This document shows positions 13,601-60,906 of a stretch of DNA of 64,000 nucleotides, piece by piece (within the stretch, counting starts at the first letter, position 1; each line of letters starts with the position of its first letter). The notes under the pieces are model-generated. The model had not been told where the DNA came from, made no database searches, and was given only the letters and a program-made list of their open reading frames with translations. Source of the DNA: Spirochaetia bacterium (GTDB lineage: Bacteria; Spirochaetota; Spirochaetia; WTKD01; G963693115); assembly GCA_965226055.1 (NCBI GenBank), contig CBDDCA010000006.1:258251-322250 (forward strand), written 5' to 3'. The position numbers and the translations under genes are program-made.

Positions 13601-16600
13601 TAGGAGTTCCTGATATTGTGCCAGTGCTAGTATTAAAATCTAACCCTGTATTTACTGTTATATCTGGACTTATACTAAAACTTCCTGTTATATCAGGCGT
13701 TTTGGTAAAAGTTATTTCTTTATTTTTTGCAAGTGGAACATTTACATATGTATTTATACTACGATTACTTGCACTTATATTAAAATACCATGTAGGCAAC
13801 TTTGCTACTGCGGTATTCTTAAACATATCTGTTTTTGTCACACCACTTGCTACATTCCAGCTTTCAAGATCTTTTTCAAATGCATTTGCTCCACTGAGCA
13901 TACTACTCATATTGGTGACAGCATTTACATCCCATTCGGATATATCTCCATTGAAAGTAATATTATCCTTAAATAGATCACTCATATCTGTTATTTTACT
14001 TGTATCTATTATGTTGAGATTAGCTTCGTTTCCTTGTACATTTATCTCTGTAGTTATAGCTTGCTTTAATTCTGTTTTATTATTAGGAGTATGCTTATAC
14101 CTACGTATCTCTACCGATATTTTTATTGTCCTATCAGTATCAATATATTTATGTATTACTGTTCCATCTGTCTTTTTACTTGTAAACTGTATGGTATATT
14201 CAGTCTTTGAGATTGCTGTAAGAGGAGTACCCGATATTTTACCAGTGCTAGGATCAAAATCTAAACCTGTATTTTTTGCTATATCTGGACTAACGCTAAA
14301 ACTTCCTGTTATATTAGGTGTTTTGGTAAGGGTTATTTCTTTATCTGTTGCTAATGGTATGTTTTTATATGCAATTATCTTATTATCACTTGCACTTATG
14401 CTAAAATACCATGTAGGCAACTTTGCTACTGCGGTATTCTTAAATATATCTGTTTTTGTCACAGTCCCATCGCTTGCTACATTCCAATCTTCCAGATCTT
14501 GGTTAAATTTTGTCGCTCCCAAGAACATCTTGCCTATATCGGTAACGCTACTTATATTCCAGCTTGATATATCTTGATTAAACGCTGCCGCTGACGAAAA
14601 CATCTGATGCATATTCGTAACTTTTCCTACCTTCCAATTTGATATATCTTTATTAAAAATGGTTGCTCCCGAAAACATAGCTGTCATATTTGTAACTTTT
14701 CTTACATCCCAGCCCGACATATTGCTATTAAAATTTGCTGCTCCTAAAAACATTCGATTCATATCCGTAACTGCCCCTACATTCCACCCCGATATATCTT
14801 TATTGAAACTGGTTGCTCCCGAAAACATATTCCCCATATCATTCACATTTTGTACCTTCCAATTTGATATATCTTGATTAAAACTTGTCGCATTCCAAAA
14901 CATACCATTCATGTTAGTAACACTTTGTACCTTCCAGTTTGATATATCTTGATTAAAACTACCTGCATAATAAAACATACTGCTCATATCAATAACATTA
15001 CTTACATTCCAACCAGAAATATCCCCATTAAATGCAGCAGCTTGATTAAACATATGACTCATATCAGTAACATTACTTACATCCCACTCAGATATTTTAC
15101 CATTAAAAGTAGTATTACTATTAAATAATCCACTCATATCATCAATCTTACTAGTATCAATTATATTTAAGTCAGCAGTATTTCCTTGTAATCCTATCTC
15201 AGTATTTATATTGTTTATTAATTCTAATTTACCAGTAGGAGTATACTTATGCCCTATAGTAACTGTTATCGTTATTGTCCTATCAGTATAGGCATATATT
15301 GTTTTCCCATTCTTTTCACTGGTAAACTGTATGGTGTAAGGAGTTTTTGAAGCTACCTTTGTAGGAGTACCCGATATTGTCCCAGAGCTAGAATCAAAAC
15401 TCAAGCCTGTATTTGTTGTGATACTTGGACTTATACTAAAACTTCCTGCTATACTAGGTGTTTTGGTAACTTTTATTTCTTCACTTGCTCCTAATTTTAT
15501 ACGTGCTTGCCCTGTCAGAGCAGACTTATTTGCACTTATACTAAAATACCATGTAGGTAACTTTGCTACTGCGGTATTCTTAAACATATCTGTTTTTGTC
15601 ACAGTCCCATCGCTTGCCACCTTCCAGCTTTCAAGATCTTTGTCAAATGCACTTGCTCCTAAAAACATGCTACTCATATCAGCAACCTTGCTTACATTCC
15701 ATCCCGATACATTTTGATTGAAACTTGTTGCTCCTGAAAACATATTACTCATATCGGTAACGCTACTTACATCCCATCCCGATATATCTCCATTGAAATT
15801 AGCTTTATTCTCAAATATATTACTCATATCTGTTATATTACTTGTATTTATTATGTTTAAGTTAGCAGTATTTCCTTGTACTTCTATCTCCTTTTTTATG
15901 TTTTCCAATAACTCTGTTTTGTTGTTAGGAGTATAAAGATAAGTATTTATTGCTACTGATAGAGTGATGGATCTAGTATCGACATAAGTATATGTCGCTG
16001 GATTACCTGAGCTATCAGTAAAGCTACTGGTAAACTGTATGGTGTAAGAAGTTTGTGAAGCTGCCTCGGTAGGAGTACCCGATATTGTGCCAGTTCTAGT
16101 ATCAAAATCTAACCCTGTATTTGCTTTGATATCTGGACTTATACTGAAACTTCCTGCTATAAGGGGTGTCCTTGTCAGTATTATATCTGTTATTGGTACT
16201 TTTACTCCCTCATGTATACTATTGCTGCTTGCGCTTATACTAAAATACCATGTAGGTAATTTTGCTACTGCAGTATTCGTAAACATATTTGTTTTTGTCT
16301 TAAGGCTTGCTATATTCCAGTTTTCAATATCTCCATTAAATTTTATCGCCCCACTCAACATATTTTCCATATCAGTGACTTTACTTACATTCCACTCGGA
16401 TATATTTCCATTGAAAGTAGTGTTATCCTTAAATAGATCACTCATATCTGTTATGTTACTTGTATCTATTATGTTGAGATTAGCAGTATTTCCTTGTGCA
16501 TTTATCTCTGTAGTTATAGCTTGCTTTAATTCTGCTATATTATTGGGAGTATGCTTATATTTATGTATCTCTACTGATATTGTTATTGTTCTATCAGTAT

Positions 16601-19073
16601 AGGTATGTGTTGCTAAAGCACCTGTACTACCAGTAAAGCTACTGGTAAACTGTATGGTGTAAGAAGTTTGTGAAACTGCTTTGGTAGGAGTGCCTGATAT
16701 TGTCCCAGTGCTAGTATTAAAACTCAACCCTGTATTTGCTGTTATATCTGGACTAATACTAAAATTTCCTGCTATATCAGGCGTTTTGCTAAGGGTTATT
16801 TCTTCATTTTTTGCTAGCGGTATTCCTCTATATACATCTATACTAGCACTATTTGACTTTATGCTAAAATACCATGTAGGTAATTTTGCTACTGCGGTAT
16901 TCTTAAATATATCTGTTTTTGTCACAGCGATTGCTACATTCCAGCCTTCAAGATCTTGTGTAAACTTAGAAGCACCAGAAAACATGCTACTCATATTGGT
17001 AACCTTGCTTACATTCCATCCCGACACATTTTGATTGAAACTTGTTGCTCCTAAAAACATACTGCTCATATCGGCAACTTTACTTACATTCCATCCCGAT
17101 ACATTTTGATTGAAACTTGTTGCTCCTAAAAACATACTGCTCATATCGGTAACTTTACTTACATTCCATTTCGATATGTCTCCATTAAAACTTGTTGCTC
17201 CTGAAAACATACTGCTCATATCGGTAACTTTACTTACATTCCATTTCGATATATCTCCATTGAAAGTAGTGTTATCCTTAAATAGCCTACTCATATCTGT
17301 TATAAGACTCGTATTTATTATGTTTAGATTAGCAGTATTTCCTTGCAATCCTACCTCTGTTTTTATAGCTTCCAATAATTCTGCTTTATTTTTTGGCTTA
17401 TACTCTATAGTGAGCAATATTTCTATTGTCCTATCAGTATCAGTATAGGTATGTATTTCTGTCCTATCAGAGGAGGTACTTGTAAATGTTATAATATACT
17501 CAGTCTCTGAGGCTACCTTTGTAGGAGTACCTGATATTGTGCCAGTACTAGTATCAAAACTCAACCCTATACTCGTTATATCTGGCTTTATACCAAATTT
17601 TCCTGTTATATCAGGCGTTTTGCTAAGAGTTATTTTTTCATTATCTGCTAGTGATACCCCTTTATATACAGTGAGCTCATCAACATTAGCACTTATGCTA
17701 AAATACCATGTAGGCAATTTTGCTACTGCGGTATTTGTAAACATATCTTTTTTTGTCACAGTGCTTGCTACATTCCAGCCTTCAAGATCTTTATCAAATG
17801 CACTTGCTCCTGAAAACATACCATCCATATCTGTAATATTACTTACCTTCCACTTTGATATGTCTCCATTGAAACTTGTTGCTCCTGCAAACATATTACT
17901 CATATCGGTAACATTGCTTACATCCCACAATGATATATCTCTATTAAAGGTAGTGTCATCCTTAAATAGATCATGCATATCTTTTACAGCACTTGTATTT
18001 ATATAGTTAAAATTATCTACATCAGTATTTTTAATTGCTTCTATTAATTCGTTACGTGTTTTTACTATAGCAGTAAACACCGATACATATATAGAGAACT
18101 GGCTAGACTTTCCTAAGTAACTTCCATCCCCTGTAAAACGAATTGTATATTTTCTTCGTATACCATTTTCTTTATCCTTCAATAACCTTATTGCAGTGCC
18201 ATATATTTCTCCATTATTGTCCTTCATCTCCAATCCTGTATCTTCCGTAAGAGTTGTCGTTTTTCCATCAGTACTATTAAATTCAATACTCCATGTACCA
18301 GTAATTCCTGGAGGGCTTGTTGCAATATTGATTGGCATTAAAGGAACATTCAAGCTCGACTTGATTAACTGTTCATTATCATACCTATCTGTGATAGAGT
18401 TTCCATCACGCACAAGAGTAAATACATAATGCCAACTAGGAATACTTGTTGCAGGTACATTAGCTCCCTTAAATATATCTTGTATATTTACTGAATCTGC
18501 TACCTGCCATTTCTCTAAATCATACTGAAACACTGTTGCTTTATTAAACATGTTACTCATATCGGTAACCTTGCTCACATTCCAGCCTGATATATCTTGA
18601 TTAAAACTTGCTGCGGCTTCAAACATGTTACTCATATCGGTAACCTTGCTCACATTCCAGCCTGATATATTTTGATTAAAACTCGTTGCTCCCTTAAACA
18701 GATTACTCATATTAGTAACATTACTTACATTCCAGCCTGATATATTTCCATTAAAGGTAGTATTTCCTTCAAACATACTGCTCATATCAGTAATATTGCT
18801 TACATCCCAACTTGATATATCACCTGAAAAATTGGAAAATTCACCATCACCTTTGAATAAGCCGCTTATATCTTTTACTTTACTTGTATCTATAGTAGAG
18901 AGATCTGCTGCATTTCCGCGGGAGGCAATTTCTCGCTTAATGTTTTCAATAAGCGATTCTCTACTATCAGGAGAGTAAATAAAGTCTAAACTTAAAGATT
19001 TTTCTGGATCACAACCAGATACCAAAAAAGCGAAACATAAAAATAGCCAAAATATAAAAAATTGATACTTCAT
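10605..19073 (-). CDS. Giant 2822-aa modular surface lipoprotein: about 10 modules, each a DUF285 repeat block plus a He_PIG-type Ig-like domain
   Basis: Lipobox (FLVSGC). Each module reads '..NTANLNIIDTS.ITDMS.LF', then 3-8 repeats of 'F.GATSFNQDIS.WNVS.VTDMS.MF', then 'AVAKLPTWYFSISA...ITLTKTP.I(A/T)GSFSISPDIT.NTGLSFDTSTGTISGTPT...YTIQFTS'. Confidence 0.85.
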   Translation of the reverse strand: MKYQFFIFWLFLCFAFLVSGCDPEKSLSLDFIYSPDSRESLIENIKREIASRGNAADLSTIDTSKVKDISGLFKGDGEFSNFSGDISSWDVSNITDMSSMFEGNTTFNGNISGWNVSNVTNMSNLFKGATSFNQNISGWNVSKVTDMSNMFEAAASFNQDISGWNVSKVTDMSNMFNKATVFQYDLEKWQVADSVNIQDIFKGANVPATSIPSWHYVFTLVRDGNSITDRYDNEQLIKSSLNVPLMPINIATSPPGITGTWSIEFNSTDGKTTTLTEDTGLEMKDNNGEIYGTAIRLLKDKENGIRRKYTIRFTGDGSYLGKSSQFSIYVSVFTAIVKTRNELIEAIKNTDVDNFNYINTSAVKDMHDLFKDDTTFNRDISLWDVSNVTDMSNMFAGATSFNGDISKWKVSNITDMDGMFSGASAFDKDLEGWNVASTVTKKDMFTNTAVAKLPTWYFSISANVDELTVYKGVSLADNEKITLSKTPDITGKFGIKPDITSIGLSFDTSTGTISGTPTKVASETEYIITFTSTSSDRTEIHTYTDTDRTIEILLTIEYKPKNKAELLEAIKTEVGLQGNTANLNIINTSLITDMSRLFKDNTTFNGDISKWNVSKVTDMSSMFSGATSFNGDISKWNVSKVTDMSSMFLGATSFNQNVSGWNVSKVADMSSMFLGATSFNQNVSGWNVSKVTNMSSMFSGASKFTQDLEGWNVAIAVTKTDIFKNTAVAKLPTWYFSIKSNSASIDVYRGIPLAKNEEITLSKTPDIAGNFSISPDITANTGLSFNTSTGTISGTPTKAVSQTSYTIQFTSSFTGSTGALATHTYTDRTITISVEIHKYKHTPNNIAELKQAITTEINAQGNTANLNIIDTSNITDMSDLFKDNTTFNGNISEWNVSKVTDMENMLSGAIKFNGDIENWNIASLKTKTNMFTNTAVAKLPTWYFSISASSNSIHEGVKVPITDIILTRTPLIAGSFSISPDIKANTGLDFDTRTGTISGTPTEAASQTSYTIQFTSSFTDSSGNPATYTYVDTRSITLSVAINTYLYTPNNKTELLENIKKEIEVQGNTANLNIINTSNITDMSNIFENKANFNGDISGWDVSSVTDMSNMFSGATSFNQNVSGWNVSKVADMSSMFLGASAFDKDLESWKVASDGTVTKTDMFKNTAVAKLPTWYFSISANKSALTGQARIKLGASEEIKVTKTPSIAGSFSISPSITTNTGLSFDSSSGTISGTPTKVASKTPYTIQFTSEKNGKTIYAYTDRTITITVTIGHKYTPTGKLELINNINTEIGLQGNTADLNIIDTSKIDDMSGLFNSNTTFNGKISEWDVSNVTDMSHMFNQAAAFNGDISGWNVSNVIDMSSMFYYAGSFNQDISNWKVQSVTNMNGMFWNATSFNQDISNWKVQNVNDMGNMFSGATSFNKDISGWNVGAVTDMNRMFLGAANFNSNMSGWDVRKVTNMTAMFSGATIFNKDISNWKVGKVTNMHQMFSSAAAFNQDISSWNISSVTDIGKMFLGATKFNQDLEDWNVASDGTVTKTDIFKNTAVAKLPTWYFSISASDNKIIAYKNIPLATDKEITLTKTPNITGSFSVSPDIAKNTGLDFDPSTGKISGTPLTAISKTEYTIQFTSKKTDGTVIHKYIDTDRTIKISVEIRRYKHTPNNKTELKQAITTEINVQGNEANLNIIDTSKITDMSDLFKDNITFNGDISEWDVNAVTNMSSMLSGANAFEKDLESWNVASGVTKTDMFKNTAVAKLPTWYFNISASNRSINTYVNVPLAKNKEITFTKTPDITGSFSISPDITVNTGLDFNTSTGTISGTPTKAASKTDYTIEFTSSFTDSKGNPATHKYTDRTIKISVTTSYKHTPSNKTELQKAVDDEIAAQGDTANLNIIDTSVITDMSNLFEDKANFNGDISKWNVSKVTNMSNMFLNANKFNGDISGWNVSAVTNMESLFAGAHAFNQDIKNWTVSKVINMRAMFLSAQSFNQDIKNWTVSKVTNMETMFNFASKFSANLENWNVKSSVIKTNMFESTVVKKLPTWYFSINANRTTITGYKDLSLSNTETITLTKTSNVTGSFSISPNITTNTGLNFDTNTGSISGTPTILASQTKYTIQFTSEKNGKTIHTYTDRTIEIHVTISQYKYTPSDKTELQKAVDDEINAQGNTANLNIIDTSAITDMSNIFSSKDHFNGNVSKWDVSKVTNMSSIFAGAQKFNGDISNWNVSSVTNMFFMFNNANAFNQDLESWNVDSGVTKTDMFLASAVKKLPTWYFSISANSTTISVYRDLSLLDSQKIILTKTPVITGSFSISPNITTNTGLNFDTSTGIISGTPTTVTSQTEYTIQFRSEEADKTLIHKYIDDRRTIKVLVTIKEYKHIPNNKAELQQAINTEITVQGNTPDLTMIDTSKIKDMSSLFSSEVNFNGNISRWNVSSVTNMSSMFFKASEFNQDITGWNVSKVTDMRSMFINASKFNQDITGWNVSKVTDMSNMFKGASVFNKELETWNVDKTVSKTNMFEHTAVVILPTWYFNISASRASIGGSVKAYVGVPLTKDKEVTLTKTPAIAGIFSISPDITADTGLSFDADTGKISGTPTKAASKTYTIEFTSKKSDGKAIHTYTDASRSKTISVTIEYKYTPQNKKKLEEAIEAEIKAQGFAPNLNMIDTSNITDMGGLFYDKQYFNGDVSLWNVSKVTDMSNMFNQTEFFNGDISKWNVGKVTNMNSMFYDAEAFNQDIGNWNVSNVANMRYMFYDADVFNQDIGNWNVSNVTDMSSMFADASVFNQNLSNWNVANSVIKTDMFKGTAVKNLPGWCLPAGNCR

Positions 19074-42087: not shown

Positions 42088-43044
42088 TCATATTGGTATC
42101 TTAATCCATGCTTGAGGCACATCTGTATCATTGATACTGTATCCTTCTTTTTCTTTAGAACTAATATACGGTAAAATTACTATCTTATCTTTATTTGTAT
42201 TAAGCCATGCTCCCCACCAACTAAATGTACTACTTGCAATTATTTGATGCTTACATTTACTTAGCAAATATAAATCTTCATGTCCTTTTGAAAGTGAATT
42301 TCCGTCCATAATAGTAAAGGATATATGAGAGAAACGATGAGCTTGCCTTTTAACCCATGCAGGATCATCACTAAAGAAAAAATAATGTGGATGCTGTAAT
42401 TTTTTCTGCATAATATGTATTGCAGCAAGATAATAATCTATACCTACCAAATTGCCTATAGTAACAACATCTGTCCTACGAATATGAACTCCCACTGATT
42501 GCTTTTTACTCAATATGATGTTTTCGTATTTTAAAGAATAGCTGCCAAGTGGATTACGAAGGGTACATTGCTGAAGAATATCACTTCGATACTCTTCAAA
42601 AAATGTATGACATTGAAACCAACCATCAAGGTACACATTATTCCCCAGACGAAATAAAGATTGTACATACTCATCTGGATACCCATATTTAACATGATGA
42701 TTATTAAACGTTTTCAAACAATATATCTTTGTAAGATACCGTTTAAGAAATAATGCTACTTTCATAGGAACATTCATTTTCCTTATAAGAGATAATAAAG
42801 CATGCACTCTCCTATAATATTTGTAAGAAGGTATTAGTAAGCAACCATATTGAGCAATAATATTATATTCATCAAGAAAAAGAATACGAGCTTTTATACT
42901 GTTACCAGCAGAATCTTTCACAAAATAATCATAATCTAAAAAATCAAGAACAACATAGGTATTATTTTTTCTTGCTAAGGCATAGGCTGTAGCGTATTGA
43001 AATAACTGATTACCAAGTCTCCCTTGTACTTTAACAGCTATCAT
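42088..43044 (-). CDS. Glycosyltransferase family 11 (alpha-1,2-fucosyltransferase-like)
   Basis: N-terminal 'MIAVKVQGRLGNQLFQYATAYALA' is the GT11 hallmark (FutC/WbsJ-like). Its start lies inside the 3' end of the upstream HtrL-like gene. Confidence 0.75.
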   Translation of the reverse strand: MIAVKVQGRLGNQLFQYATAYALARKNNTYVVLDFLDYDYFVKDSAGNSIKARILFLDEYNIIAQYGCLLIPSYKYYRRVHALLSLIRKMNVPMKVALFLKRYLTKIYCLKTFNNHHVKYGYPDEYVQSLFRLGNNVYLDGWFQCHTFFEEYRSDILQQCTLRNPLGSYSLKYENIILSKKQSVGVHIRRTDVVTIGNLVGIDYYLAAIHIMQKKLQHPHYFFFSDDPAWVKRQAHRFSHISFTIMDGNSLSKGHEDLYLLSKCKHQIIASSTFSWWGAWLNTNKDKIVILPYISSKEKEGYSINDTDVPQAWIKIPI

Positions 43045-43990
43045 ATCTTATACCATATTTATCCCTTCCATTGAGGACGTACCCCCCCCCCCCCAATTTC
43101 CACAGCATGCCTTTTACAATATTCTTAAAAGATTGATATAACGAAGGTTTCATTTTTTTCTGTAATAATTTCTCTGGTAAAAAATATTGATGAAAATAAA
43201 ACCATACATCAAAAGGATGAGGAGGATCAATCATATGAAAATATTCGGGATATCCAATGGCAAGACGAGCATATATATTTTGTTCTACTCCAATAAATGT
43301 ACCATGAGAAGACATGTTATCCTTCAATGTATAGTAAAGATTATGTATTTTTAAGAGAATAGAGCTATGAATAAGAAATAAGCCTCCAACATGTTCTCTT
43401 GTTCGCAAGGTCAATGTAGCTATATTTTCTTTCTCCTTCGCATATTGTTGAACATCAAACCTTTGTTCTGTTTTTGTCATTACTACTTTATGGGGAGACA
43501 TAGTAGTTACTTTTTCTACATCAGGCCACTGTCTAATTTCTCTTGGTTTCAAATCGTAATCATACCTACGCTTTCTTCCTCTAAACGCTCCAATATCCAT
43601 CCACATAAACCACTGCGACCGAAACACATTTAACTCATACGCTTCTTTTACAAAATGTAATTTTTCGTTCCATATAATATACAGCTCAGGATCATGTATA
43701 TCTTTTTCTTTATTTTTTGCATGATGTTCTTGATACAATGCATAATGAGCATACTCATGAAGCTGATGAAATTCTTTTATAATAACAACAGTATTTTCTT
43801 GATACTTTTTCCTTAATCGTAAAAAATAGGGAGCATGCTCTTTATCAGTAAATATAACGAGCGGGAGTTTCATATTACAGAGAAAATTTTTTATCCACTG
43901 TTTATACATATCATCACTATGTTTTGATTTCTTAAGACGATAATATGCAGTCACTATTGTGAGACTATTCTTAACAATACTTTCCTCCAA
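43031..43990 (-). CDS. HtrL/YibB-family putative glycosyltransferase, copy 1. It has a poly-G tract near its 3' end
   Basis: 'SLTIVTAYYRLKKS...' has HtrL_YibB-like N-terminal topology. It is about 96% identical to the 44115-45119 protein up to '...MLWKLGGGG', after which the tails differ. Confidence 0.6.
   Translation of the reverse strand: MEESIVKNSLTIVTAYYRLKKSKHSDDMYKQWIKNFLCNMKLPLVIFTDKEHAPYFLRLRKKYQENTVVIIKEFHQLHEYAHYALYQEHHAKNKEKDIHDPELYIIWNEKLHFVKEAYELNVFRSQWFMWMDIGAFRGRKRRYDYDLKPREIRQWPDVEKVTTMSPHKVVMTKTEQRFDVQQYAKEKENIATLTLRTREHVGGLFLIHSSILLKIHNLYYTLKDNMSSHGTFIGVEQNIYARLAIGYPEYFHMIDPPHPFDVWFYFHQYFLPEKLLQKKMKPSLYQSFKNIVKGMLWKLGGGGYVLNGRDKYGIRYDSC
43082..43094 (-). repeat. Homopolymeric tract C13 on the + strand (G13 on the coding strand). 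It lies ~17 codons before the stop of HtrL copy 1
   Basis: Counted directly: 43081 'a', then 13 c, then 'aatttcc'. Confidence 0.95.
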
Positions 43991-44114: not shown

Positions 44115-45119
44115 TCAAAAATAAGACAAGATGCCATTAGTATACAACAAAAATTCTATTTTATAAGCAAACTCTCTTTCCTTCCTTATTATTATTCCAT
44201 TGGGGTGTACCCCCCCCCCCCCCAATTTCCACAGCATGCCTTTTACAATATTCTTAAAAGATTGATACAACGAAGGCTTTATTTTTTTCTGTAATAATTT
44301 CTCTGGTAAAAAATATTGATGAAAATAAAACCATACATCAAAAGCATGAGAAGGATCAATCATATGAAAATATTCAGGATATCCAATGGCAAGACGAGCA
44401 TATATATTTTGGTCTACTCCAATAAATGTACCATGAGAAAACATATTATCCTTCAATGTATAATAAAGATTATGTATTTTTAAGAGAATAGAGCTATGAA
44501 TAAGAAATAAGCCTCCAACATGTTCTCTTGTTCGCAAGGTCAATGTAGCTATATTTTCTTTCTCTTTCGCATATTGTTGAACATCAAACTCTTCCTCTGT
44601 TTTTATCATTACTGCTTTATGGGGAGACATAGTAGTTACTTTTTCTACATCAGGCCACTGTCTAATTTCTCTTGGTTTCAAATCGTAATCATACCTACGC
44701 TTTCTTCCTCTAAACGCTCCAATATCCATCCACATAAACCACTGCGACCGAAACACATTTAACTCATACGCTTCTTTTACAAAATGTAATTTTTCGTTCC
44801 ATATAATATACAGCTCAGGATCATGTATATCTTTTTGTATATCTTTTGCATGATGTTCTTGATACAATGCATAATGAGCATACTCATGAAGCTGATGAAA
44901 TTCTTTTATAATAACAACAGTATTTTCTTGATACTTTTTCCTTAATCGTAAAAAATAGGGAGCATGCTCTTTATCAGTAAATATAACGAGCGGGAGTTTC
45001 ATATTACAGAGAAAATTTTTTATCCACTGTTTATACATATCATCACTATGTTTTGATTTCTTAAGACGATAATATGCAGTCACTATTGTGAGACTATTCT
45101 TAGCAATACTTTCCTCCAA
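44115..45119 (-). CDS. HtrL/YibB-family putative glycosyltransferase, copy 2. It has a poly-G tract near its 3' end
   Basis: Tandem paralog of 43031-43990. It is identical over most of its length and diverges at only a few residues (e.g. KDIQKD vs KNKEKD; MIKTEEEFD vs MTKTEQRFD). Confidence 0.6.
   Translation of the reverse strand: MEESIAKNSLTIVTAYYRLKKSKHSDDMYKQWIKNFLCNMKLPLVIFTDKEHAPYFLRLRKKYQENTVVIIKEFHQLHEYAHYALYQEHHAKDIQKDIHDPELYIIWNEKLHFVKEAYELNVFRSQWFMWMDIGAFRGRKRRYDYDLKPREIRQWPDVEKVTTMSPHKAVMIKTEEEFDVQQYAKEKENIATLTLRTREHVGGLFLIHSSILLKIHNLYYTLKDNMFSHGTFIGVDQNIYARLAIGYPEYFHMIDPSHAFDVWFYFHQYFLPEKLLQKKIKPSLYQSFKNIVKGMLWKLGGGGVHPNGIIIRKEREFAYKIEFLLYTNGILSYF
44210..44223 (-). repeat. Homopolymeric tract C14 on the + strand (G14 on the coding strand) in HtrL copy 2
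   Basis: Counted directly: '...tggggtgta' then 14 c (44210-44223) then 'aatttcc'. This is one nucleotide longer than the tract in copy 1. Confidence 0.95.
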
Positions 45120-49835: not shown

Positions 49836-50699
49836 TTAATGAGAGATACTATTAACTTTTAAACTATCTTTGAAAAATAATATTTCTTTTCCATTCTTAG
49901 TTTTATTAGCAAAATGTTTTAGAATAAAAGGTTTTCTATTTTTTACCCAAGAAAAATTTTCATTTATTTCCTCTTTATCATCATAAGAAACAATCCAAGA
50001 AAATTTTTTAATATTTTTAATTTTTTCACTTAAGATTTTATGCTGATCTTGTTTATAAAAGTTTAAGTATAAATCTTTTCCTTTATTAAAATAGGGAGGA
50101 TCAAAATAAAATATTGTCTGCTTATTTTTTTCTTCTTTTTGAATTTTATCAATTAGTTCTAAAACATCTAGATTATGCAGAGTTATTTGTTCTTTATACC
50201 TTGCTATTAATTTGATTTTTTTTATTATTGTATCTTTATTGAATCTACAATTTAATTTATATTTTCCTTTTTGTTTTAAGCCTCCAATAGGACCTCCTTT
50301 TAAAATTCCTGAAAAATTTGCCCTATTTAAAAATAATGTAGAAAAGCCTACCTCTAATGATGAAAAATTTTGTATCTCTTTTTGTATTTCTTTTTGTTTT
50401 TTCCAATTTTCTATACTTATTTCTGTATCATGTATGAGTGTGCATAACTCATCAGTTTTATTCAAAACACAATACCAAAAAGAATAAATAGATTTGTCTA
50501 AATCATTTAAAGTTATTTTTTTAAATTTATTTTCTAATAAAAGATATAAACCAACTGAAGCTCCTCCACAAAAAGGCTCTACATAATGATCATTTATTTT
50601 ATTATCAGTGCAAATTTGAGAAATAAATTTTGAAAGCCTATTCTTTCCTCCTGGATATCTTAATGGTGAATAAAATTTATTTTTAATCATTTTTACCAT
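49836..50699 (-). CDS. Dam-family (D12, alpha-class) N6-adenine DNA methyltransferase
   Basis: 'YPGGKNRL' , then motif I 'EPFCGGASV', then 'NDLDKSIY', then motif IV 'FYFDPPYF'. The gene is very AT-rich compared with its neighbours. Confidence 0.8.
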   Translation of the reverse strand: MVKMIKNKFYSPLRYPGGKNRLSKFISQICTDNKINDHYVEPFCGGASVGLYLLLENKFKKITLNDLDKSIYSFWYCVLNKTDELCTLIHDTEISIENWKKQKEIQKEIQNFSSLEVGFSTLFLNRANFSGILKGGPIGGLKQKGKYKLNCRFNKDTIIKKIKLIARYKEQITLHNLDVLELIDKIQKEEKNKQTIFYFDPPYFNKGKDLYLNFYKQDQHKILSEKIKNIKKFSWIVSYDDKEEINENFSWVKNRKPFILKHFANKTKNGKEILFFKDSLKVNSISH

Positions 50700-51969
50700 A
50701 GTAATGCTTTAATATTTTCCCTACAATTTTAGAACACTGTAAAATATTTGTTTTATCATATTCAATATTTGCGTGAGCATATTTTGCTAATAACGATTCA
50801 AAATCAGAATTTTTTTTCAAAATGTCTGTGCCAATACTATTGAAATTTAATTCTTTTTGATCTAACATATCAGATGCTTTAATTTCTTTCATAAATTCTC
50901 CAAAAACAGCATCATCACTTGCTCGTTTATCTCCCTCATTTTCAAAATATTTTCTTCCAGCAGCCTCCATTATTAGTCTCAAAGACATACCTATAATAGG
51001 TAAGATATTTTTATCTCTTTTAAATGTTTCATAAATTTCATCTAGTATACTATACAAATCATTAACTTTTCCTTTTTTTAGTTCTAATTTTTCTCCAAAT
51101 AAAGTATCTACGATTGCTTTATCTCTAGGAGTTTTTCTTAGTTTTTTTTGTAAATTATTATCTTTTATCACATTCTTGCTACTCTGTTCTGTAAAATTTC
51201 TAATATTTAATTCTTTATCATCAATTAAAGGTTTTATTGATCCTCTATTTTTTCTTGTACTTATTTGTTTACTTTGAATCAATTGTATTAATTTTTCAAA
51301 AATTAATTGTAATTTTTCATCCTTTTCATATGAAGGATAAACACTCTCTAATTTATTATTTGAATCAAAATAAAAACCTAATTTGTAAAAATTATCTACA
51401 GTCAAAATTTCTGTTTTAATAAAATTTTGATCTAGTGCTTTATAATTCTCACTTATTAAATGTGTTGCTTCTTCAATTTTTAAAAATAAACTTTTTTCCT
51501 TTTTCAAATGATAATGATCAAAATAATCTTGTTGTAAAGCAGACCAAGTATTATTTCTTATATTATCTGCTTGTATAATTGTTAATGCTGTTTTCTCATT
51601 ACATAAAACACAAGAAATTTCTTTTAAGTTTACTAAATTTTTTGGTGGACTAGATGGAAATAATTTTTTTTCTATTACAACAGACCATTGTGGATTTTGT
51701 AAATATTTTAATACTACTATTCTTTTATTACCATCATAAACAATATGTTTTTTATTTTTAAAAACAACAATTGGTAATTTATTAAGATGATAGAAATCTC
51801 CCATTTCTTCAATTAGCTTTGGAATATTCCATTTATCTCTATCATCCTTTATGGCTTTTTTTATTATTTCTAAATCTCCAATATCTTCTCCAATTGGATC
51901 TCTTGGATTTTCAGTCCATAAATGTAATTCCGATATTTTTATCTCTTTGATTTTTTGATCATCACCCAT
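50683..51969 (-). CDS. ParB/Srx-like (DUF262-like) nuclease-domain protein, 428 aa. Its gene overlaps the start of the Dam-family MTase gene
   Basis: N-terminal 'ISELHLWTENPRDP ... LPIVVFKNKKHIVYDGNKRIVVLKYL' fits the ParB N-terminal/DUF262 pattern (NPR...DG.xR). I recognise no domain in the C-terminal half. Confidence 0.6.
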   Translation of the reverse strand: MGDDQKIKEIKISELHLWTENPRDPIGEDIGDLEIIKKAIKDDRDKWNIPKLIEEMGDFYHLNKLPIVVFKNKKHIVYDGNKRIVVLKYLQNPQWSVVIEKKLFPSSPPKNLVNLKEISCVLCNEKTALTIIQADNIRNNTWSALQQDYFDHYHLKKEKSLFLKIEEATHLISENYKALDQNFIKTEILTVDNFYKLGFYFDSNNKLESVYPSYEKDEKLQLIFEKLIQLIQSKQISTRKNRGSIKPLIDDKELNIRNFTEQSSKNVIKDNNLQKKLRKTPRDKAIVDTLFGEKLELKKGKVNDLYSILDEIYETFKRDKNILPIIGMSLRLIMEAAGRKYFENEGDKRASDDAVFGEFMKEIKASDMLDQKELNFNSIGTDILKKNSDFESLLAKYAHANIEYDKTNILQCSKIVGKILKHYYGKND

Positions 51970-52016
51970 ATATTTAATTCCTCCACCTCTCTTGCTTAAT
52001 CTACTTAATAAGTATA

Positions 52017-54785: not shown

Positions 54786-55864
54786 CGAGTTCAAGGATTA
54801 AATGCGACAAAGGAGCAAAAAAAGTAAGAAAAAATAAAAAAAGGAGACACTCTATAATTGTATAAACGAAACAAATTAGGAGGTCTCCTTTATGAGTATA
54901 CCAAAAAACTCATTTCGTCATCTGACAGAGAAAGATCGTACTATTATCGCTACGCTCCGTCATGCAAAGTACAGTGTCAATGCTATAGCCAAACGCCTCA
55001 GTGTCCATCGCAGCACTGTCTATCGTGAAATACAACGCAATGGGGGCAAACGTGTCTATAATGAAGTCATTGCTCACAGACGGGCAAGAAAACGATGGGA
55101 ACAGAGTCATACAAAACACTCTGTTCTTTCTCATACTATTCGTACCTATATCGTTTTTCACCTTATTTTCGATGGCTGGTCGCCCGAACAAATAGCAGGA
55201 AGGCTCAGTATTGATATGCCTCAGTATGCTATCAGTCATGAGACGATATATCACTTTATTTACCGTTTCGCTCCTCATTTGACACAGTATCTGCGAAAAC
55301 AGCACCAAACACGCAAAAAAAGAACCATATCTCACTCTTTTTCTGTTTCTCGTATCCCTCATCGTGTCTCAGTACACGAACGAGGCGATGTTTCTAATGA
55401 ATATGGCCACTGGGAAGTAGATCTTGTTGGCTCTTCTTCAAAAGCTACTGTGCTTGCTTTAGTGGAAAAACATACCCGTTATGTTCTTTTTCATAAGATA
55501 CCTGACAAAACTGCTCATACCGTACAGTATGGCATGCTCTTTGCTCTAAGGAACATACCACGCCATTTATGTAACAGTTTCACTTATGATAATGGGAGTG
55601 AATTTATGCTCCATACTGAAATAAATACACGCTTGAATGCTCGTTCTTATTTTTGTACTCCTTACTGTGCTTGGGAAAAAGGATTAGTCGAACATTCTAT
55701 TGGATTATTACGTCAGTACTTTCCTAAGAAGACTTTGTTTCATAGAGTCAAGCAAAGTGATATACTACAAGTACAAACGCTTATCAATCATAGACCACGA
55801 AAATGTCTTCATTTTTTGACCCCTGCTGAAGCCTTTTCTGTCGCATTTAGTCCTTGAATCCGCA
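54786..55864 (+). mobile_element. Intact IS30-family insertion sequence (~1.08 kb) with terminal inverted repeats of ~23-25 bp
   Basis: IRL 'cgagttcaaggattaaatgcgaca' (54787-54810). The reverse complement of the right end (55839-55863) reads 'gcggattcaaggactaaatgcgaca'. A single transposase ORF is present and its stop lies inside the IRR. Confidence 0.8.
54892..55857 (+). CDS. IS30-family DDE transposase
   Basis: An N-terminal HTH ('..NAIAKRLSVHRSTVYREIQRNGG', cf. IS30 '..RSTISRELKRN') and a C-terminal DDE region (HWEVDLV ... YDNGSEF ... CLHF). An RBS 'aggagg' lies 8 nt upstream. Confidence 0.85.
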   Translation: MSIPKNSFRHLTEKDRTIIATLRHAKYSVNAIAKRLSVHRSTVYREIQRNGGKRVYNEVIAHRRARKRWEQSHTKHSVLSHTIRTYIVFHLIFDGWSPEQIAGRLSIDMPQYAISHETIYHFIYRFAPHLTQYLRKQHQTRKKRTISHSFSVSRIPHRVSVHERGDVSNEYGHWEVDLVGSSSKATVLALVEKHTRYVLFHKIPDKTAHTVQYGMLFALRNIPRHLCNSFTYDNGSEFMLHTEINTRLNARSYFCTPYCAWEKGLVEHSIGLLRQYFPKKTLFHRVKQSDILQVQTLINHRPRKCLHFLTPAEAFSVAFSP

Positions 55865-56137
55865 CTTAGTACAGAAAATAATAAGGAAATGATAATTACT
55901 CTTATGGCTGATAAATTTGAAATTGCTAAAGACGCAATGACTTATCGTCTGGGATTACAAAATAAATAGCTTTTTTATGATAGCCTAAAAAACTCTCTGT
56001 AATTGCCCATCATAGCAATACTACAAAAATTTTAATTTTTTACTATAATACTAGTGTATGATGATAACATACAATAATGAAACAAAAGGAGTATTTCTAT
56101 GAATGAAAATAGAGAGCTACAAAGTATGAAAAAAATC

Positions 56138-56152
56138 GGGGGGGGGGGGGGG
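56138..56152 (+). repeat. Homopolymeric G15 tract inside the 5' end of the lipoprotein reading frame (a candidate slipped-strand phase-variation switch)
   Basis: Counted directly: 'aaaaaatc' + 15 g + 'tacactc'. The upstream ATG at 56099 (with a GGAG RBS 8 nt upstream) reads MNENRELQSMKKIGGGGG and terminates at the TAA at 56177 in the current frame. Confidence 0.95.
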
Positions 56153-56190
56153 TACACTCTCGATATAAGCAAAACCTAACTATACTAGTA

Positions 56191-59100
56191 GTGCTAGCAA
56201 TGACTACCCTCGTACTTGTAGGATGTGCAGAGAGTAGCAACAATTCCTCATCAGGCGGAGGGGGAAAACAGGTAACCCCGACACTCGCATCAGTGTCCAA
56301 TGTGCAGATACAAGCAGCAAGCAACGATGGGACGCTCTCGTTACGCTGGCAAGCTCCCAGCGAAGCCACGCATGTAGTAGTAAAAGCTACATCAACTGCG
56401 CCAGCACAATCTATACAGGTGCGTGTTCCTGCAATAGAATATCGTGCATTGTTTCAACAAAACAGACCCTACACCCTCAGAGGCTTGCATGCCACTACCG
56501 ATTATACAGTAGAGATAGAAGCACAAAAATCAGACTCAGAAGTATCACCAAAAACAACACGCTCTGTGACAACACTGATCGATGAAACTGCACCACAGGA
56601 CACTTTTACACGGGTAGCAGTAGAGAAAGCACAAAACGATAGTATAAAGCTAACATGGGACAAAGCACTGCTATCGTCAGGCAAGACAGACATAGCCGAA
56701 GCCACAATACAGGTGATAGAAAGAACTACTAATGTAAGGGCAGAAGTATCAGTACAAGATGTAACACAAGGAGAGGTGAGCATTGCTGTCCCCACTATAG
56801 ACGGCATAAGCTATGATATAGTAGTAGTATACAAAGATAGCAACGGTAACGAAAGCACAGCAAAGCAAGCACTCAGAGGCATAGTGCCATCAGCACTCTC
56901 ACAAACAGTAACGCCACTTTCCGCATCAGACCTTACAGTAACAGCAAACGATAAAAGCAATAGCCCAGCCGATGAAAGCCTGCTTATTATGTGGGATGAT
57001 AAAGATGACAGCTTTGACTTTTCAAACAAAAGCCTCCAAGTACGCGTTATAGCAACCGCAACAAATACAGTAGTAGCAGAGGAGACAATAGACAAAGATA
57101 CAAGTGCAACAAATGTCAGCGGAGCAAGTGCAGACAACCAAGAGTACGCCACTGTGTATGTAGCAAAAGATGGCATAGCACTCACAAAACTCTATGGCAC
57201 GCTTACCTACAAAGTAGAAGTGTATGTTTCTCAAAACGGAAAGTACTCCACTGCAGTGTCAAAAGAACAAGCAACAACAGACAAAAGCACAGAGCCTGTA
57301 AGCAATGTAAGTGCCGTAGGAGGAGCAACAAGCATAGTAGTAGGCTGGCAAGCCCCCGATGTACGAGATTATGCAGGAGTGACTATAACAGTAACAGAAA
57401 AGGACAGCACAACAGCAGCAAAGACAGTGACAATAACAGAGAGAACAGTACGCAACACACAGATAACAGACCTCAAAGCAACCACCGAGTATACAGTGGC
57501 AGTCGTATCAATGGACAGTGCAGGCAACAAAGGAACAGAAGCAACAGCCACAGTCAGCACATCAGCAGATAGCACCGCCCCCGATGCAGTAACAAGCATA
57601 CAAGCAAGCTATCCTTTTGTATCAGCAGCAAAGATAGGCACACAGATAACATGGACAGCACCCGATGCAGCAAAAGCAAAGAACAAAGACATAAAAGAAT
57701 ACAGCGTAAGCATAGCAGAAAAAGGCACAAGCACCACAGTACTGAGCGAGAAGAAAATACCCTATCCCACAAAGTCACTCTCTGTAGAAGAACTTGTGCA
57801 AGGCAAAACATATACCATAACAATACTCACGCTTGATTACTCAGAAAACAAAAGTAGCCAAGCCACAAAAGACATAACAACCCCCAACTCACTCACAGCT
57901 CCCTCAGAAGATCTCTTTCAAAGCAAGCCTACCCTTGACAAAACAGGAGCTATACAGATAAAAGCAACTTTTAAGAATGCTCCAAGCATAGGACGATACT
58001 ACACCTTGCGTATGAAAGAGGGAGCTACCTTAATAGCAGAAAAAAGCATAACAAACACAGCAATCACCATTAGCTTTGGGATAGCAGATGGCTTAGAAGT
58101 ACCTAAGAGCCAAGCAAATGCCAAGAATTATCGCTTTGATTTTCTGCAAATAGCAAATAACAGAGTAAGTCCAGTAACCGCACTGAGTGATGCAGTAGCA
58201 GTATACGATAGCACCTCGACAGCACCGCCCGCTCCCAAAGATGCAAAGCTCTCCGTAGAGTCAGTAACCCAAACAACTGCAAAAGCAGTCTATACATTTA
58301 GTGCAGGAGACATTACTGATACCAACAAAGCACCCAGCGGAAGCAAACTCACACAGGCACAAATACAATACAAAGTATACATAGCAGCAGGAGACCACAG
58401 CACAAAAACACTAGACGAAATAAAAGCCCTTGCAGGAGTACAAACAAGAGAGCTAGCAGGAAACAGCACTCCATTAAAAGCAACATTTATAGGAACGAAA
58501 GGAGCAGACTATACCGCAGGGGTAGAAGCAATAAACAGCCTCAATCCATCATATAGTACAGGAGCATCAGTAACAATAAAGAAAGCAACACTTACTGCTC
58601 CCCCAAGCACACCAAAAGTAACAACCTACACTAACAGTAATGCAGTGGTATTTGCAGTGCCTACCACAGGAAGTAACAGCGGGAAAAAAGTCATAACAGT
58701 ACAACTCAATGCCTCAGACATAGCAGGAGTGAGCAAGGCAAATGGCAATGCCCTTGAAGCGACAGACCTTGCCTACTATGTGCTATACCTCAAGAAAGAA
58801 GATAGCACAGGAAAGCCTGCCAGCGTATCAGCACTATGGGCAACAGAAAAGAGCAGTACAAGAGTGGCAAAATACACAAAAGCAACAGGAACAACTCAAG
58901 ACACAATATCCATAGCAATAGTAGACAGCACCAGTGGAAGCAATGCAGGAGCCACACCCATAGAAACAGCAAAAGACTACTACATAGGAGTAAGGATAGT
59001 CAACACAACATCCCCCAATTACGATGCAACAAATAGCGACAAGCTCTTTCCTGCAGGCTTTTACACCGATGTAACAGAAATAAAGGAAATCTATACTTCC

Positions 59101-60906
59101 AAAGCAGTAGCACCCAGCCAGTCATTACTCACAGGAAAGCTGGTAGTATCACAGTCAACAAATACTACAGGCACAATAAAGCTGGTACTTACCGAGCTAA
59201 ATACATTTACAGGAGCAAAAGACTACGATGGCACAAACATAACAGCAAATGACAAGCTAGTATACACAGTGTATGGCTTACAGAAAGACACCACTCCTAC
59301 AGTAGCAGAAGTACTTGCAGGCAGAAAAGTAAACCTAGGCAGTGCAAGTAGCGGAGTGTACACAGTACCAGCTCTTGCCAGTTTAGGCTTATCTTCAGAC
59401 ACAGCACCAGTAGTAGCAATAAAAGGAGCGACAAAGTATTACTTTGTGGTAGAGGTAGCAATAAAAACAGACCCTAGCAAGAAAGTAGCATCCTCAACAG
59501 TAGCAAGCGTAACAACCGCATCGCAGGCGACCGCCCCCGCAGAAGTAAGCAGTATACAGACAAGAGTAGCCCAGACAGGCATGAGAGTATCGTGGACAGC
59601 CCCCAGCCTCAGTGCAAGCCACAAAGCAAATACAGGCGATGCCCTAACAGTAGCACAAGTATCGTACAAGGTATACAAAGTAGCTAAGGGAGGCAGTGCA
59701 AAAAGTGTAGCAGCAATAAAACAAGCAGACTCAAGTCCTACAACAGTAGCAGCAGGAACAACAAACACTACCCTGACAGGATTGACAAACGGAACGACCT
59801 ACGAAATAGTAGTGCAAGCAGTAAACAGCACCGATGATACAAAAGCATCCACTGGACTACGCCACGAGTTTGAAGCAAGAGGAATAGCTATAGGAAACAC
59901 TAGCATAGTCTCAGCAGAAGTAGGCAAAACGCCAGCAATAAATATTACAAGAGTACTTACCAGTAACTCTGCCTTTACCTGTGATGCAAACATACTAGAG
60001 GCAGATGCAAAGAAGATAAAACAAGAAACAGGGCTAGCAGTATCGTTTGATCAGAGTAGCAAAACAGTTACTATAACAGGCATAGCAAATAAGTCTAATA
60101 TACGAGATACAGCCATTACTGAGTATAACTATGCTGTAGCACAGTGTACAATAACCGCTTCAAAGAAAAAAGTGCCAGCCACCATCGTGATACAGACAGA
60201 GCTAAGAACAGCACCATCAGGAAAAGCAGAAGCCTATTACAGACCAACAACAAAGGCACAGCTTCAAACTATTATCAGTGAAGAAAAGACAAGGCAAGGT
60301 TCAGGAGGAAACAGTAACCCTAGCCCCAACCTCAACATGATAGACACCAGTGCTATTACTGATATGAGCCAATTATTTCAGAATGATACTACTTTTAATG
60401 GAGATCTAACACAGTGGAATACCAGTAATGTAACGAGAATGAATGGTATGTTTACTGATGCAAGTGTTTTTAATCAAAATATAGGAGATTGGGATACAGG
60501 AGAAGTTATACATATAGGTAGTATGTTTTTTAGAGCAAGTGTTTTTAATCAAAATATAGGAAGCTGGAATATAAGTAAAGTTAAAAATATTGATAGTATG
60601 TTTGCTAGTGCCAGTGCTTTTAATCAAGACATAGGAAATTGGGACACAAGCAATGTTATTAATATGAGTACTACATTTTTGAGTGCAAGTGCCTTTAATC
60701 AAGACATAGGAAACTGGAATGTAAAGAATGTCGATTCTATAACTGGTATGTTTAACGGAGCTTCTACATTTGATCAAGATTTATCATCATGGATATTGTG
60801 TAAAGCAAGTCTCACTTTTTTGGAGTTCGAAAATTCGGCTATGGATGGAAAAACAGCAAAGTACCCGACAGTAAAGCGTCAAAGTGATCCAGCATGTACA
60901 TCGTAA
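56191..60906 (+). CDS. Large chimeric surface lipoprotein (1571 aa): Ig/FN3-like domains plus a C-terminal DUF285 repeat module
   Basis: Lipobox (..LVLVGC). Several 'S(L/I)..W.AP' FN3-like domains. One FN3 unit (about 59520-59880) is homologous to the 1791-4043 repeats. The C-terminal 'NLNMIDTSAITDMSQLF..FNQNIGDWDT..' carries six DUF285 repeats. The frame is open from 56113, but the strong start at 56099 is out of frame. Confidence 0.75.
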   Translation: MLAMTTLVLVGCAESSNNSSSGGGGKQVTPTLASVSNVQIQAASNDGTLSLRWQAPSEATHVVVKATSTAPAQSIQVRVPAIEYRALFQQNRPYTLRGLHATTDYTVEIEAQKSDSEVSPKTTRSVTTLIDETAPQDTFTRVAVEKAQNDSIKLTWDKALLSSGKTDIAEATIQVIERTTNVRAEVSVQDVTQGEVSIAVPTIDGISYDIVVVYKDSNGNESTAKQALRGIVPSALSQTVTPLSASDLTVTANDKSNSPADESLLIMWDDKDDSFDFSNKSLQVRVIATATNTVVAEETIDKDTSATNVSGASADNQEYATVYVAKDGIALTKLYGTLTYKVEVYVSQNGKYSTAVSKEQATTDKSTEPVSNVSAVGGATSIVVGWQAPDVRDYAGVTITVTEKDSTTAAKTVTITERTVRNTQITDLKATTEYTVAVVSMDSAGNKGTEATATVSTSADSTAPDAVTSIQASYPFVSAAKIGTQITWTAPDAAKAKNKDIKEYSVSIAEKGTSTTVLSEKKIPYPTKSLSVEELVQGKTYTITILTLDYSENKSSQATKDITTPNSLTAPSEDLFQSKPTLDKTGAIQIKATFKNAPSIGRYYTLRMKEGATLIAEKSITNTAITISFGIADGLEVPKSQANAKNYRFDFLQIANNRVSPVTALSDAVAVYDSTSTAPPAPKDAKLSVESVTQTTAKAVYTFSAGDITDTNKAPSGSKLTQAQIQYKVYIAAGDHSTKTLDEIKALAGVQTRELAGNSTPLKATFIGTKGADYTAGVEAINSLNPSYSTGASVTIKKATLTAPPSTPKVTTYTNSNAVVFAVPTTGSNSGKKVITVQLNASDIAGVSKANGNALEATDLAYYVLYLKKEDSTGKPASVSALWATEKSSTRVAKYTKATGTTQDTISIAIVDSTSGSNAGATPIETAKDYYIGVRIVNTTSPNYDATNSDKLFPAGFYTDVTEIKEIYTSKAVAPSQSLLTGKLVVSQSTNTTGTIKLVLTELNTFTGAKDYDGTNITANDKLVYTVYGLQKDTTPTVAEVLAGRKVNLGSASSGVYTVPALASLGLSSDTAPVVAIKGATKYYFVVEVAIKTDPSKKVASSTVASVTTASQATAPAEVSSIQTRVAQTGMRVSWTAPSLSASHKANTGDALTVAQVSYKVYKVAKGGSAKSVAAIKQADSSPTTVAAGTTNTTLTGLTNGTTYEIVVQAVNSTDDTKASTGLRHEFEARGIAIGNTSIVSAEVGKTPAINITRVLTSNSAFTCDANILEADAKKIKQETGLAVSFDQSSKTVTITGIANKSNIRDTAITEYNYAVAQCTITASKKKVPATIVIQTELRTAPSGKAEAYYRPTTKAQLQTIISEEKTRQGSGGNSNPSPNLNMIDTSAITDMSQLFQNDTTFNGDLTQWNTSNVTRMNGMFTDASVFNQNIGDWDTGEVIHIGSMFFRASVFNQNIGSWNISKVKNIDSMFASASAFNQDIGNWDTSNVINMSTTFLSASAFNQDIGNWNVKNVDSITGMFNGASTFDQDLSSWILCKASLTFLEFENSAMDGKTAKYPTVKRQSDPACTS

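Follow-up and report, generated by a model that had tools for sequence, protein, structure and literature searches.

Gene A is one copy of a large, dispersed family of putative surface lipoproteins in an uncultured Spirochaetia lineage. It was found as an uninterrupted open reading frame (ORF) of 1571 amino acids at 56191–60906 on the plus strand of the window, the whole 64,000-nt stretch of Spirochaetia bacterium DNA that was analysed. The true extent of the gene is about 56126–60906, beginning upstream of the called ORF start. A probable true start codon with its adjoining A7 run (ATGAAAAAAATC, 56126–56137, on the plus strand like all the features of gene A given below), which was recognized from the sequence and from a context common with the paralogs, codes for MKKI. 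It is followed by a G15 homopolymer (56138–56152), which starts 9 nt after the ATG at 56126, lies within the signal-peptide coding region as a putative contingency tract, and is out of frame as assembled. With G13 or G16, an in-frame protein of 1592 or 1593 amino acids would be produced, whose lipoprotein signal peptide reads MKKIGGGG(G)VHSRYKQNLTILVVLAMTTLVLVGC and ends at a lipobox, LVLVGC, directly before AESS. The rest of the signal peptide (56153–56226) up to the lipobox L-V-G-C, with the cysteine codon at 56224–56226 (..LTILVVLAMTTLVLVGC before AESS), is kept across the family. The lipobox was assessed by pattern only, as a basic n-region and a hydrophobic h-region followed by [LVI][ASTVI][GAS]C. 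Promoter and terminator scans around gene A returned nothing above shuffled expectation.

Behind the signal peptide, the predicted protein is built as a long stalk with a repeat solenoid at its tip. The stalk (residues ~35–1110, 56293–59520) comprises about nine beta-sandwich, FN3-like domains; Pfam fn3 (PF00041) matches the body of the protein in four stretches with 93.7 bits against a gathering score of 25, and the AlphaFold model of residues 25–1113 is all-beta, with about nine successive sandwiches at a mean predicted local distance difference test score (pLDDT) of 70 and with residues ~805–930 poorly predicted. A last FN3 unit (residues 1113–1231, 59527–59883), modelled as FN3 at a pLDDT of ~90, is homologous to the repeats of another gene of the window, gene B, according to alignment, profile searches, and trees. 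It is followed by a second beta-sandwich, Ig-like in type (residues ~1235–1340, 59893–60210; model residues 136–240, pLDDT 46–77; Foldseek hits to tandem pairs of FN3/Ig-like domains), which is 82–92% identical to the closest paralogs and has no significant match in two further genes of the window, C and D. Next come a conserved cap helix (model residues 256–270) and the entry into the DUF285 domain (residues 1346–1400, 60226–60390), a segment up to 91% identical in the closest paralogs and resembling the linker 'Y.P..K.EL...I......NLN.IDTS.ITDMS.LF' that precedes each DUF285 block of gene D. The hypervariable PARCEL/DUF285 solenoid (residues ~1397–1545, 60379–60825; model pLDDT >90) consists of six 25-residue repeats, whose tryptophan anchors stand 25 residues apart at positions 1409, 1434, 1459, 1484, 1509, and 1534 and whose DNA has a 75-nt tandem period at 60459–60717. 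The C-terminal cap and stop codon (60826–60906) complete the gene.

The assignment of the C-terminal domain rests on DUF285 (PF03382; 192.4 bits against a cut-off of 25) and on the NCBIfam model TIGR02167, 'PARCEL repeat-containing surface protein' (39.5 bits against a cut-off of 30). In the AlphaFold model of residues 1100–1571 (mean pLDDT 82), the FN3 unit, a less confident second sandwich, the helix, and the solenoid, with its pLDDT above 90, follow one another. A Foldseek search against the PDB returned solely tandem FN3 structures (top 6xay and 3l5j), which outcompeted any solenoid match, and a PDB sequence search with the tail of gene A gave no match. As to dyad symmetry of the coding DNA, only two weak pairs of inverted repeats (12–13 nt, 77–83% complementary) were seen.

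A protein search recovered 67 full-length relatives of gene A, 52–91% identical and ~1400–2600 amino acids long (mostly 1500–1600), from a few long contigs, and FN3 is combined with DUF285 in every one of the 67. Thirteen are encoded on the window's own 957,439-bp contig, 14 on a 726,939-bp contig, and 33 on the 2,360,799-bp contig OZ244590.1 ('MAG: Spirochaetia bacterium'). This metagenome-assembled genome (MAG) is the closest sequenced relative of the genome of gene A, and a genome scan retrieved 24 loci from it. These family counts are lower bounds, that is, at least 13 paralogs on the contig of gene A, at least 24 loci in the relative, and at least two related genomes. All members follow a shared plan of a lipoprotein signal peptide, about ten FN3-like domains of which the last is B-like, a beta-sandwich, a cap helix, and 3–8 PARCEL/DUF285 repeats of 25 residues. 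The B-like unit is the last FN3 domain before the tail in all 67 and is 63–96% identical to that of gene A. The comparison shows this plan to be, in all probability, ancestral to the family. Homology between the paralogous loci reaches no further than ~70 nt ahead of the ORF and ~55 nt beyond it, and the recovered members are almost all full-length with their own leader and lipobox, a few of the 24 loci of the relative being interrupted or truncated. No paper that connects DUF285 with surface proteins of spirochetes came up in a text search of the literature, and the family, its size, and its sharp division into stalk and tip are absent from the literature searched.

A preliminary description of this DNA called gene A a phase-variable lipoprotein, and this designation is supported by the G15 tract, which sets the frame in the leader, and by the lipobox found; from these features we infer switching itself. 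The same context, aaaaaaatc(G)ntacactctcgatataagc, is present with G12–G18 and near-identical flanks in 20 of the 24 OZ244590.1 loci. Paralogs likewise differ in the A run next to the G tract, which ranges from A6 to A8 (e.g., L007, L010, and L016, at ~1925–1945), and the switch thus appears to be a compound A(n)TCG(n) tract in which the frame is set by the sum of the A and G runs. A total of 20 or 23 nt over the two runs puts a copy in frame, which is the case in four OZ244590.1 loci, three of them with an intact ORF. Differences in homopolymer length between copies place most tract-bearing copies out of frame, and this tract polymorphism is one between copies, not one within a population at a single locus. 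In-frame copies in the protein set read ..MKKIGGGG(G)VHSRYKQN..., and for copies out of frame, gene callers have chosen a start further downstream, at MLAI.. or MTTL.... Another type of leader, MKKSNEKLNYQLNGKLNIF.., is devoid of the tract. In two loci without a G tract, L009 and L012, a poly-T run (FFFFFF in frame) lies upstream of or at the ORF start (~1850–2000).

Long G homopolymers were also observed elsewhere in the window. A G13 run (43082–43094) and a G14 run (44210–44223), both of the minus strand, are part of a duplicated segment that encodes '..LLQKKMKPSLYQSFKNIVKGMLWKLGGGG..' and is located at the ends of two paralogous HtrL_YibB-like genes (43031–43990 and 44115–45119, both minus). 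A GT11 fucosyltransferase-like gene (42088–43044, minus) adjoins this pair, and together these look like candidate phase-variable glycan-modification genes.

Several comparisons show an apparent exchange of sequence, by gene conversion or recombination, among the stalks of the paralogs. Along gene A, the best match repeatedly passes from one paralog to another, and windows of 95–100% identity occur in closest paralogs whose whole-protein identity is ~86–90%. Runs identical to gene A extend over 171 residues in P0003 (residues 616–786), 120 in P0015, 96 in P0009 and P0011, and 87 in P0010, the longest identical run expected under uniform divergence being ~35–46 residues. In a four-gamete test of the pairwise homoplasy index (PHI) type, incompatibility was 0.382 for the amino-acid sites of nine paralogs on the window's contig versus 0.546 ± 0.006 after permutation, and 0.514 versus 0.595 ± 0.002 for the DNA of 16 OZ244590.1 paralogs, with none of 300 permutations as low in either case. 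Since neighbouring informative sites are less incompatible than permuted sites, the paralogs probably recombine. Moreover, identical DNA tracts of 250–487 nt are found in paralog pairs that are 87–93% identical overall. The recombining pool appears to be the full-length gene A paralogs elsewhere in the genome, with none of its members within the window, where no second copy of gene A was found over the 64 kb.

Uneven purifying selection in a family diverging without recombination might also produce a patchwork, and the long identical runs do lie partly in segments that are conserved family-wide, such as residues 301–400 with a median identity of 87–93%. We regard this alternative as unlikely because compatible sites are spatially clustered at 0/300 permutations in both data sets, among the 16 closest OZ244590.1 paralogs the majority of site pairs are incompatible by the four-gamete test, and the 171-residue run of P0003 falls where the family median identity is ~77%; repeated switching of the best partner along gene A speaks against it as well. 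Similarly unlikely is an artefact of metagenome assembly, by which near-identical 4.7-kb paralogs would have been joined into chimeric copies and homopolymers given wrong lengths, so that neither the mosaicism nor the off state would be biological. The sources are MAGs, homopolymers of 12–18 G are error-prone on some sequencing platforms, and most tracts are G14 or G15, all of which would suit such an artefact. However, the assembly of the relative is one chromosome-level contig of 2.36 Mb and the window contig spans 957 kb, which would be hard to obtain with more than 20 misassembled 4.7-kb repeats; each copy carries a unique tip and unique flanks, and the frame rule holds across loci with A runs as well as G runs of different lengths.

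Gene A shares domain types with three other genes of the window. Gene B (1791–4043, plus strand) encodes a predicted lipoprotein containing fn3 only, in six tandem B-type units that are 72–90% identical to each other. One FN3 unit of gene A, placed at about 59520–59880, had been described as homologous to this repeat, and the placement was accurate to within a few bases. The unit 'ATAPAEVSS...STGLRHEFEARG' (59527–59883) corresponds to residues 1113–1231 and is 49–55% identical to the six B units (49–53% in a multiple alignment; 48.7–54.8% by BLASTP, with E values from 2e-34 to 3e-41). A hidden Markov model (HMM) made from the gene B units only matches residues 1113–1231 with an E value of 9e-41 and 125 bits; elsewhere in gene A it gives a weak match at residues 679–800 (E = 6e-8), and the rest are no better than E = 0.007, so that the count of one such unit is correct. 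In a search of 1.84 billion representative proteins, full-length matches to the gene A unit, at 50–57% identity, were confined to a small set of tandem-unit proteins, and ordinary FN3 proteins matched residues ~65–110 of the unit only. The likeness between the A and B units therefore exceeds that of FN3 domains in general, and the similarity stays well above the generic FN3 background instead of falling to it.

The likeness of the two units, specific as it is, is old at the DNA level. The codon-aligned identity of the A unit to units B1–B4 is 64–66% at position 1, 68–71% at position 2, and 41–45% at position 3, values that for B3 versus B4 are 95%, 93%, and 86%, respectively. Third positions at 41–45% identity place the synonymous sites near saturation, and no stretch of DNA longer than 11 nt is identical between the A unit and gene B. 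Gene B has an ortholog in OZ244590.1, P0073, which is 80% identical and possesses nine units versus six. The two terminal units of these proteins pair as orthologs and the internal units cluster within each gene, from which gene B appears to evolve by internal amplification, with its internal units homogenised within the gene.

The last ~200 residues of gene A had likewise been described as DUF285 repeats like those at 8650–9642 and 10605–19073, and the C-terminal DUF285/PARCEL domain was confirmed to be homologous to both. Gene C (8650–9642, minus strand) encodes a 330-residue DUF285 protein, as assigned by Pfam, and gene D (10605–19073, minus strand) encodes a 2822-residue protein in which DUF285 blocks alternate with He_PIG Ig-like domains (18 DUF285 and 8 He_PIG stretches in Pfam). 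Gene D consists of about ten repeated modules, each comprising a helical linker, 2–10 DUF285 repeats, and a He_PIG Ig-like domain. The tail of gene A is 51% identical to the best gene D module (152 bits) and 38% identical to gene C (106 bits), and the homology to gene D begins upstream of the repeats, taking in the helical linker found in D ahead of every DUF285 block. Among 55 DUF285 loci from other organisms retrieved in the genome scan, nearly all from other phyla, including Flavobacteriia, Campylobacterota, and Gammaproteobacteria, 43 outscored the best module of gene D against the gene A tail, and all 55 outscored gene C. Genes C and D are thus no special relatives of the gene A tail, and its homology to them appears to be real, yet at the level of the DUF285 family at large.

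From these resemblances, the preliminary description had drawn a mosaic of shuffled domains and a recombination pool shared among three surface-protein loci over 55 kb. The first idea holds in part, in that domain types common to genes A, B, C, and D are combined variously across the lineage, but recent exchange was not supported. B-type FN3 units occur by themselves in gene B, P0073, P0075, P0076, and P0078 and together with DUF285 in P0077 and P0079–P0084; DUF285 is combined with He_PIG in gene D, and an FN3 array with a beta-sandwich and DUF285 makes up the gene A family. Judging from these architectures, module shuffling over evolutionary time appears to be real in this lineage, and such shuffling was proposed earlier for PARCEL/DUF285 genes in general (PMC2996958).

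The idea of a shared pool failed the age test. The DNA identity of gene A to genes B, C, and D is 65–73%, with the third positions at the 41–45% given above, and the longest exact match between gene A and positions 1–54000 of the window on either strand is 17 nt. Trees of the FN3 units give the same answer. In neighbour-joining trees, the FN3 units of the A family form one clade, the B units with P0073 and other B-type lipoproteins form a separate clade, and a third lipoprotein group (P0083 and P0085–P0089) forms a clade of its own. Because the B-type units fall outside the whole A-family clade, the split between A and B predates the radiation of the family. By the same trees, neither the gene B repeats nor the unit of a family member can have arisen from the other since the family came into being. 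Active exchange of FN3 and DUF285 modules among genes A–D as a pool for surface variation is accordingly very improbable. It would fit the common domain types, the specific 49–55% likeness of the A and B units, and the occurrence of the same modules in several combinations, but it is contradicted by the DNA divergence, by the shortness of the exact matches (11 nt to gene B, 17 nt in the window), by a unit fixed in 67 of 67 family members with the B units outside that clade, and by tails of C and D no closer to that of A than DUF285 domains of other phyla. Taken together, these comparisons show a likeness of gene A to genes B, C, and D that is probably due to old common descent of the domain types and not to recent exchange. 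Domain types common to neighbouring surface-protein genes are therefore not evidence of ongoing exchange, and synonymous-site saturation together with unit phylogeny cleanly separates old sharing from ongoing exchange.

The tip differs from the stalk. The closest tail in the family is only 62–65% identical to that of gene A, the 67 tails fall into 63 clusters at 85% identity, and their median pairwise identity is 55%. Stalk and tail identities are uncorrelated (r = 0.09), and 278 pairs combine a stalk at least 88% identical with a tail below 60%. Variation within the 25-residue repeat is concentrated at positions -12, -11, +7, +9, and +10 relative to the invariant tryptophan, where column entropy reaches 2.9–3.3 bits, and is close to 0 bits at the framework F, N, I, W, V, and F positions. 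The five-residue hypervariable signatures are nearly all unique (263 distinct in 267 repeats), and 44 of 46 close repeat matches occur at the same index; re-use of repeat cassettes among paralogs was ruled out on these two counts. Repeat number in the family is 3–8, most commonly 5, and gene A has one more than most members. Codon choice agrees at 78% of conserved residues in the tail and at 84% in the stalk, and the synonymous rate (dS, by the NG86 method) is 0.53–0.57 in the tail versus 0.32 in the stalk. Targeted mutagenesis, for example by a diversity-generating retroelement, hardly deserves consideration as the source of this diversity in place of selection on ordinary mutation: diversity at a few positions of a C-terminal lipoprotein domain, with the nonsynonymous rate (dN) above dS there, would suit it, but no template-like second copy of the tip was found in the 64-kb window (longest exact match 17 nt), and the differences are found from gene to gene, over dozens of separate genes, rather than from template to variable region. 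A template repeat ~90% identical near a reverse transcriptase, by which such elements are recognized, was not present in the 64-kb window, the reverse transcriptase having been sought among the ORFs examined and not beyond them.

We consider it probable that the proteins of the gene A family are phase-variable FN3 lipoproteins with PARCEL tips, that their stalks recombine while each hypervariable tip stays unique, and that their likeness to genes B, C, and D is old. In such a system, slipped-strand mispairing at the tract would switch each copy on or off independently, and the window copy, with its G15, would be off as assembled. A cell could then display a changing subset of tips on a common stalk, and the tip may in this way vary in binding specificity, in antigenicity, or in both.

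Several points weigh against this reading. Recombination in the genome of the window rests on protein alignments, with the DNA evidence coming from the relative OZ244590.1, and uneven constraint along the stalk could explain part of the patchwork. Homopolymer lengths come from single consensus assemblies and may include sequencing error. Seven of the 13 members on the window contig (P0007, P0011, P0013, P0015, P0020, P0022, and P0029) are without a G tract and carry leaders such as MKKSNEKLNYQLNGKLNIF.., MKKLNYQLNG.., or MKKYHLNSK..., so that this tract may serve as a switch in only some of the members. By the NG86 method, dN/dS is about 1.8 for the hypervariable codons, compared with 0.28 for those of the framework and 0.37 for the stalk. 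The estimate uses ~15 codons per pair chosen for their variability, with dN near saturation, and is indicative only; crude as it is, the pattern is consistent with diversifying selection on one set of structural positions.

A more far-reaching proposal can be made, about which we are slightly more doubtful than convinced. The dozens of genes may form a repertoire of variable repeat-solenoid 'receptors' in an uncultured, possibly host-associated spirochete, in which one recombining FN3 stalk carries unique PARCEL tips whose 4–5 exposed positions per turn, under diversifying selection, would make a binding surface like that of leucine-rich repeats. Stochastic switching by the leader homopolymer would follow an Opa-like logic, and conversion tracts would be actively excluded from the tip. 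Phase-variable PARCEL lipoproteins have so far been known from mycoplasmas. With the A family, a spirochete probably has them too, in many copies and with roles clearly divided: the stalk is homogenised, and the hypervariable tip is unique to each copy. The hypervariable residues offer defined positions for testing ligand binding or immune escape, and PARCEL/DUF285, for which no solved structure is detectable by sequence search, becomes a candidate variable binding module.

Concerning the surroundings of gene A, an IS30-like transposase gene (HTH_38 and rve; 54892–55857, plus strand) lies directly upstream, and a related transposase is present in the 2-kb flanks of one of the 24 paralogous loci of the relative (L016). 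The FN3-rich segments 2001–4000 and 56001–60000 have a GC content of 41–44% versus 31–36% in most of the remaining window, and an AT skew of +0.38 to +0.44, reflecting A-rich coding strands. GC is low (23.4%) at 50001–52000, within a run of minus-strand genes.

By domain composition, the A family can be compared with the PARCEL lipoproteins of Mollicutes. The 25-residue PARCEL repeats have been described as having a conserved hydrophobic framework with variable hydrophilic residues (Roske et al. 2010, PMC2996958), and the 'drp' family, with 12–13 members, as consisting mostly of silent copies proposed to act as a reservoir (Nouvel et al. 2010, PMC2824730). Both groups possess tandem 25-residue repeats of this kind, lipoprotein signal peptides, and 12–27 gene copies dispersed over the genome, the silent ones among them having been proposed to act as a store of sequence. 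In contrast to those of Mollicutes, the A family belongs to Spirochaetota and places about ten FN3 domains and a further sandwich ahead of the repeats; nearly all of its copies share one homogenised stalk, and most copies in the relative's genome share one switch sequence. Membership of gene A in the Mbov_0838 family (NF045896) was rejected at 127.3 bits against a cut-off of 500.

Control by poly-G is known from other surface proteins. The meningococcal haemoglobin receptors HmbR and HpuAB are switched at translation through frameshifts in a poly-G tract inside the ORF (PMC3786947). A homopolymeric G tract in the reading frame is likewise present in the A family; however, HmbR and HpuAB are single nutrient-receptor genes, whereas the A family is multi-copy with variable tips. 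In Treponema pallidum, the expression of putative surface-protein paralogs, Tpr and others, depends on poly-G length (PMC7864442). Tpr thus resembles the A family as a spirochete paralog family with poly-G control and paralog recombination, but the tracts described in T. pallidum lie in promoters and modulate transcription, whereas the tract of the A family is inside the ORF. Furthermore, Tpr proteins are of the beta-barrel or MOSP type, and TprK is varied by donor cassettes, whereas the copies of the A family are complete genes. Cassette-type antigenic variation, as in vlsE, tprK, pilE/pilS, and vlhA, was excluded for the A family because its members are almost all full-length and not promoter-less partial donor cassettes.

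In its logic, the A family has its closest known counterpart in the Opa proteins of Neisseria. These are encoded by about a dozen dispersed full-length paralogs, each with an on/off switch of its own in the form of a repeat tract where the signal peptide is encoded, and they combine a conserved framework with hypervariable surface regions, recombination among the paralogs giving rise to mosaics. The two families are unrelated in sequence and in fold. Opa proteins are small beta-barrels of the outer membrane whose switch is a CTCTT pentamer, whereas gene A encodes a 1570-residue lipoprotein with an FN3 stalk and a solenoid, switched putatively by homopolymers. The principle is established already, and the spirochete PARCEL family with its FN3 stalk adds a new example of it.

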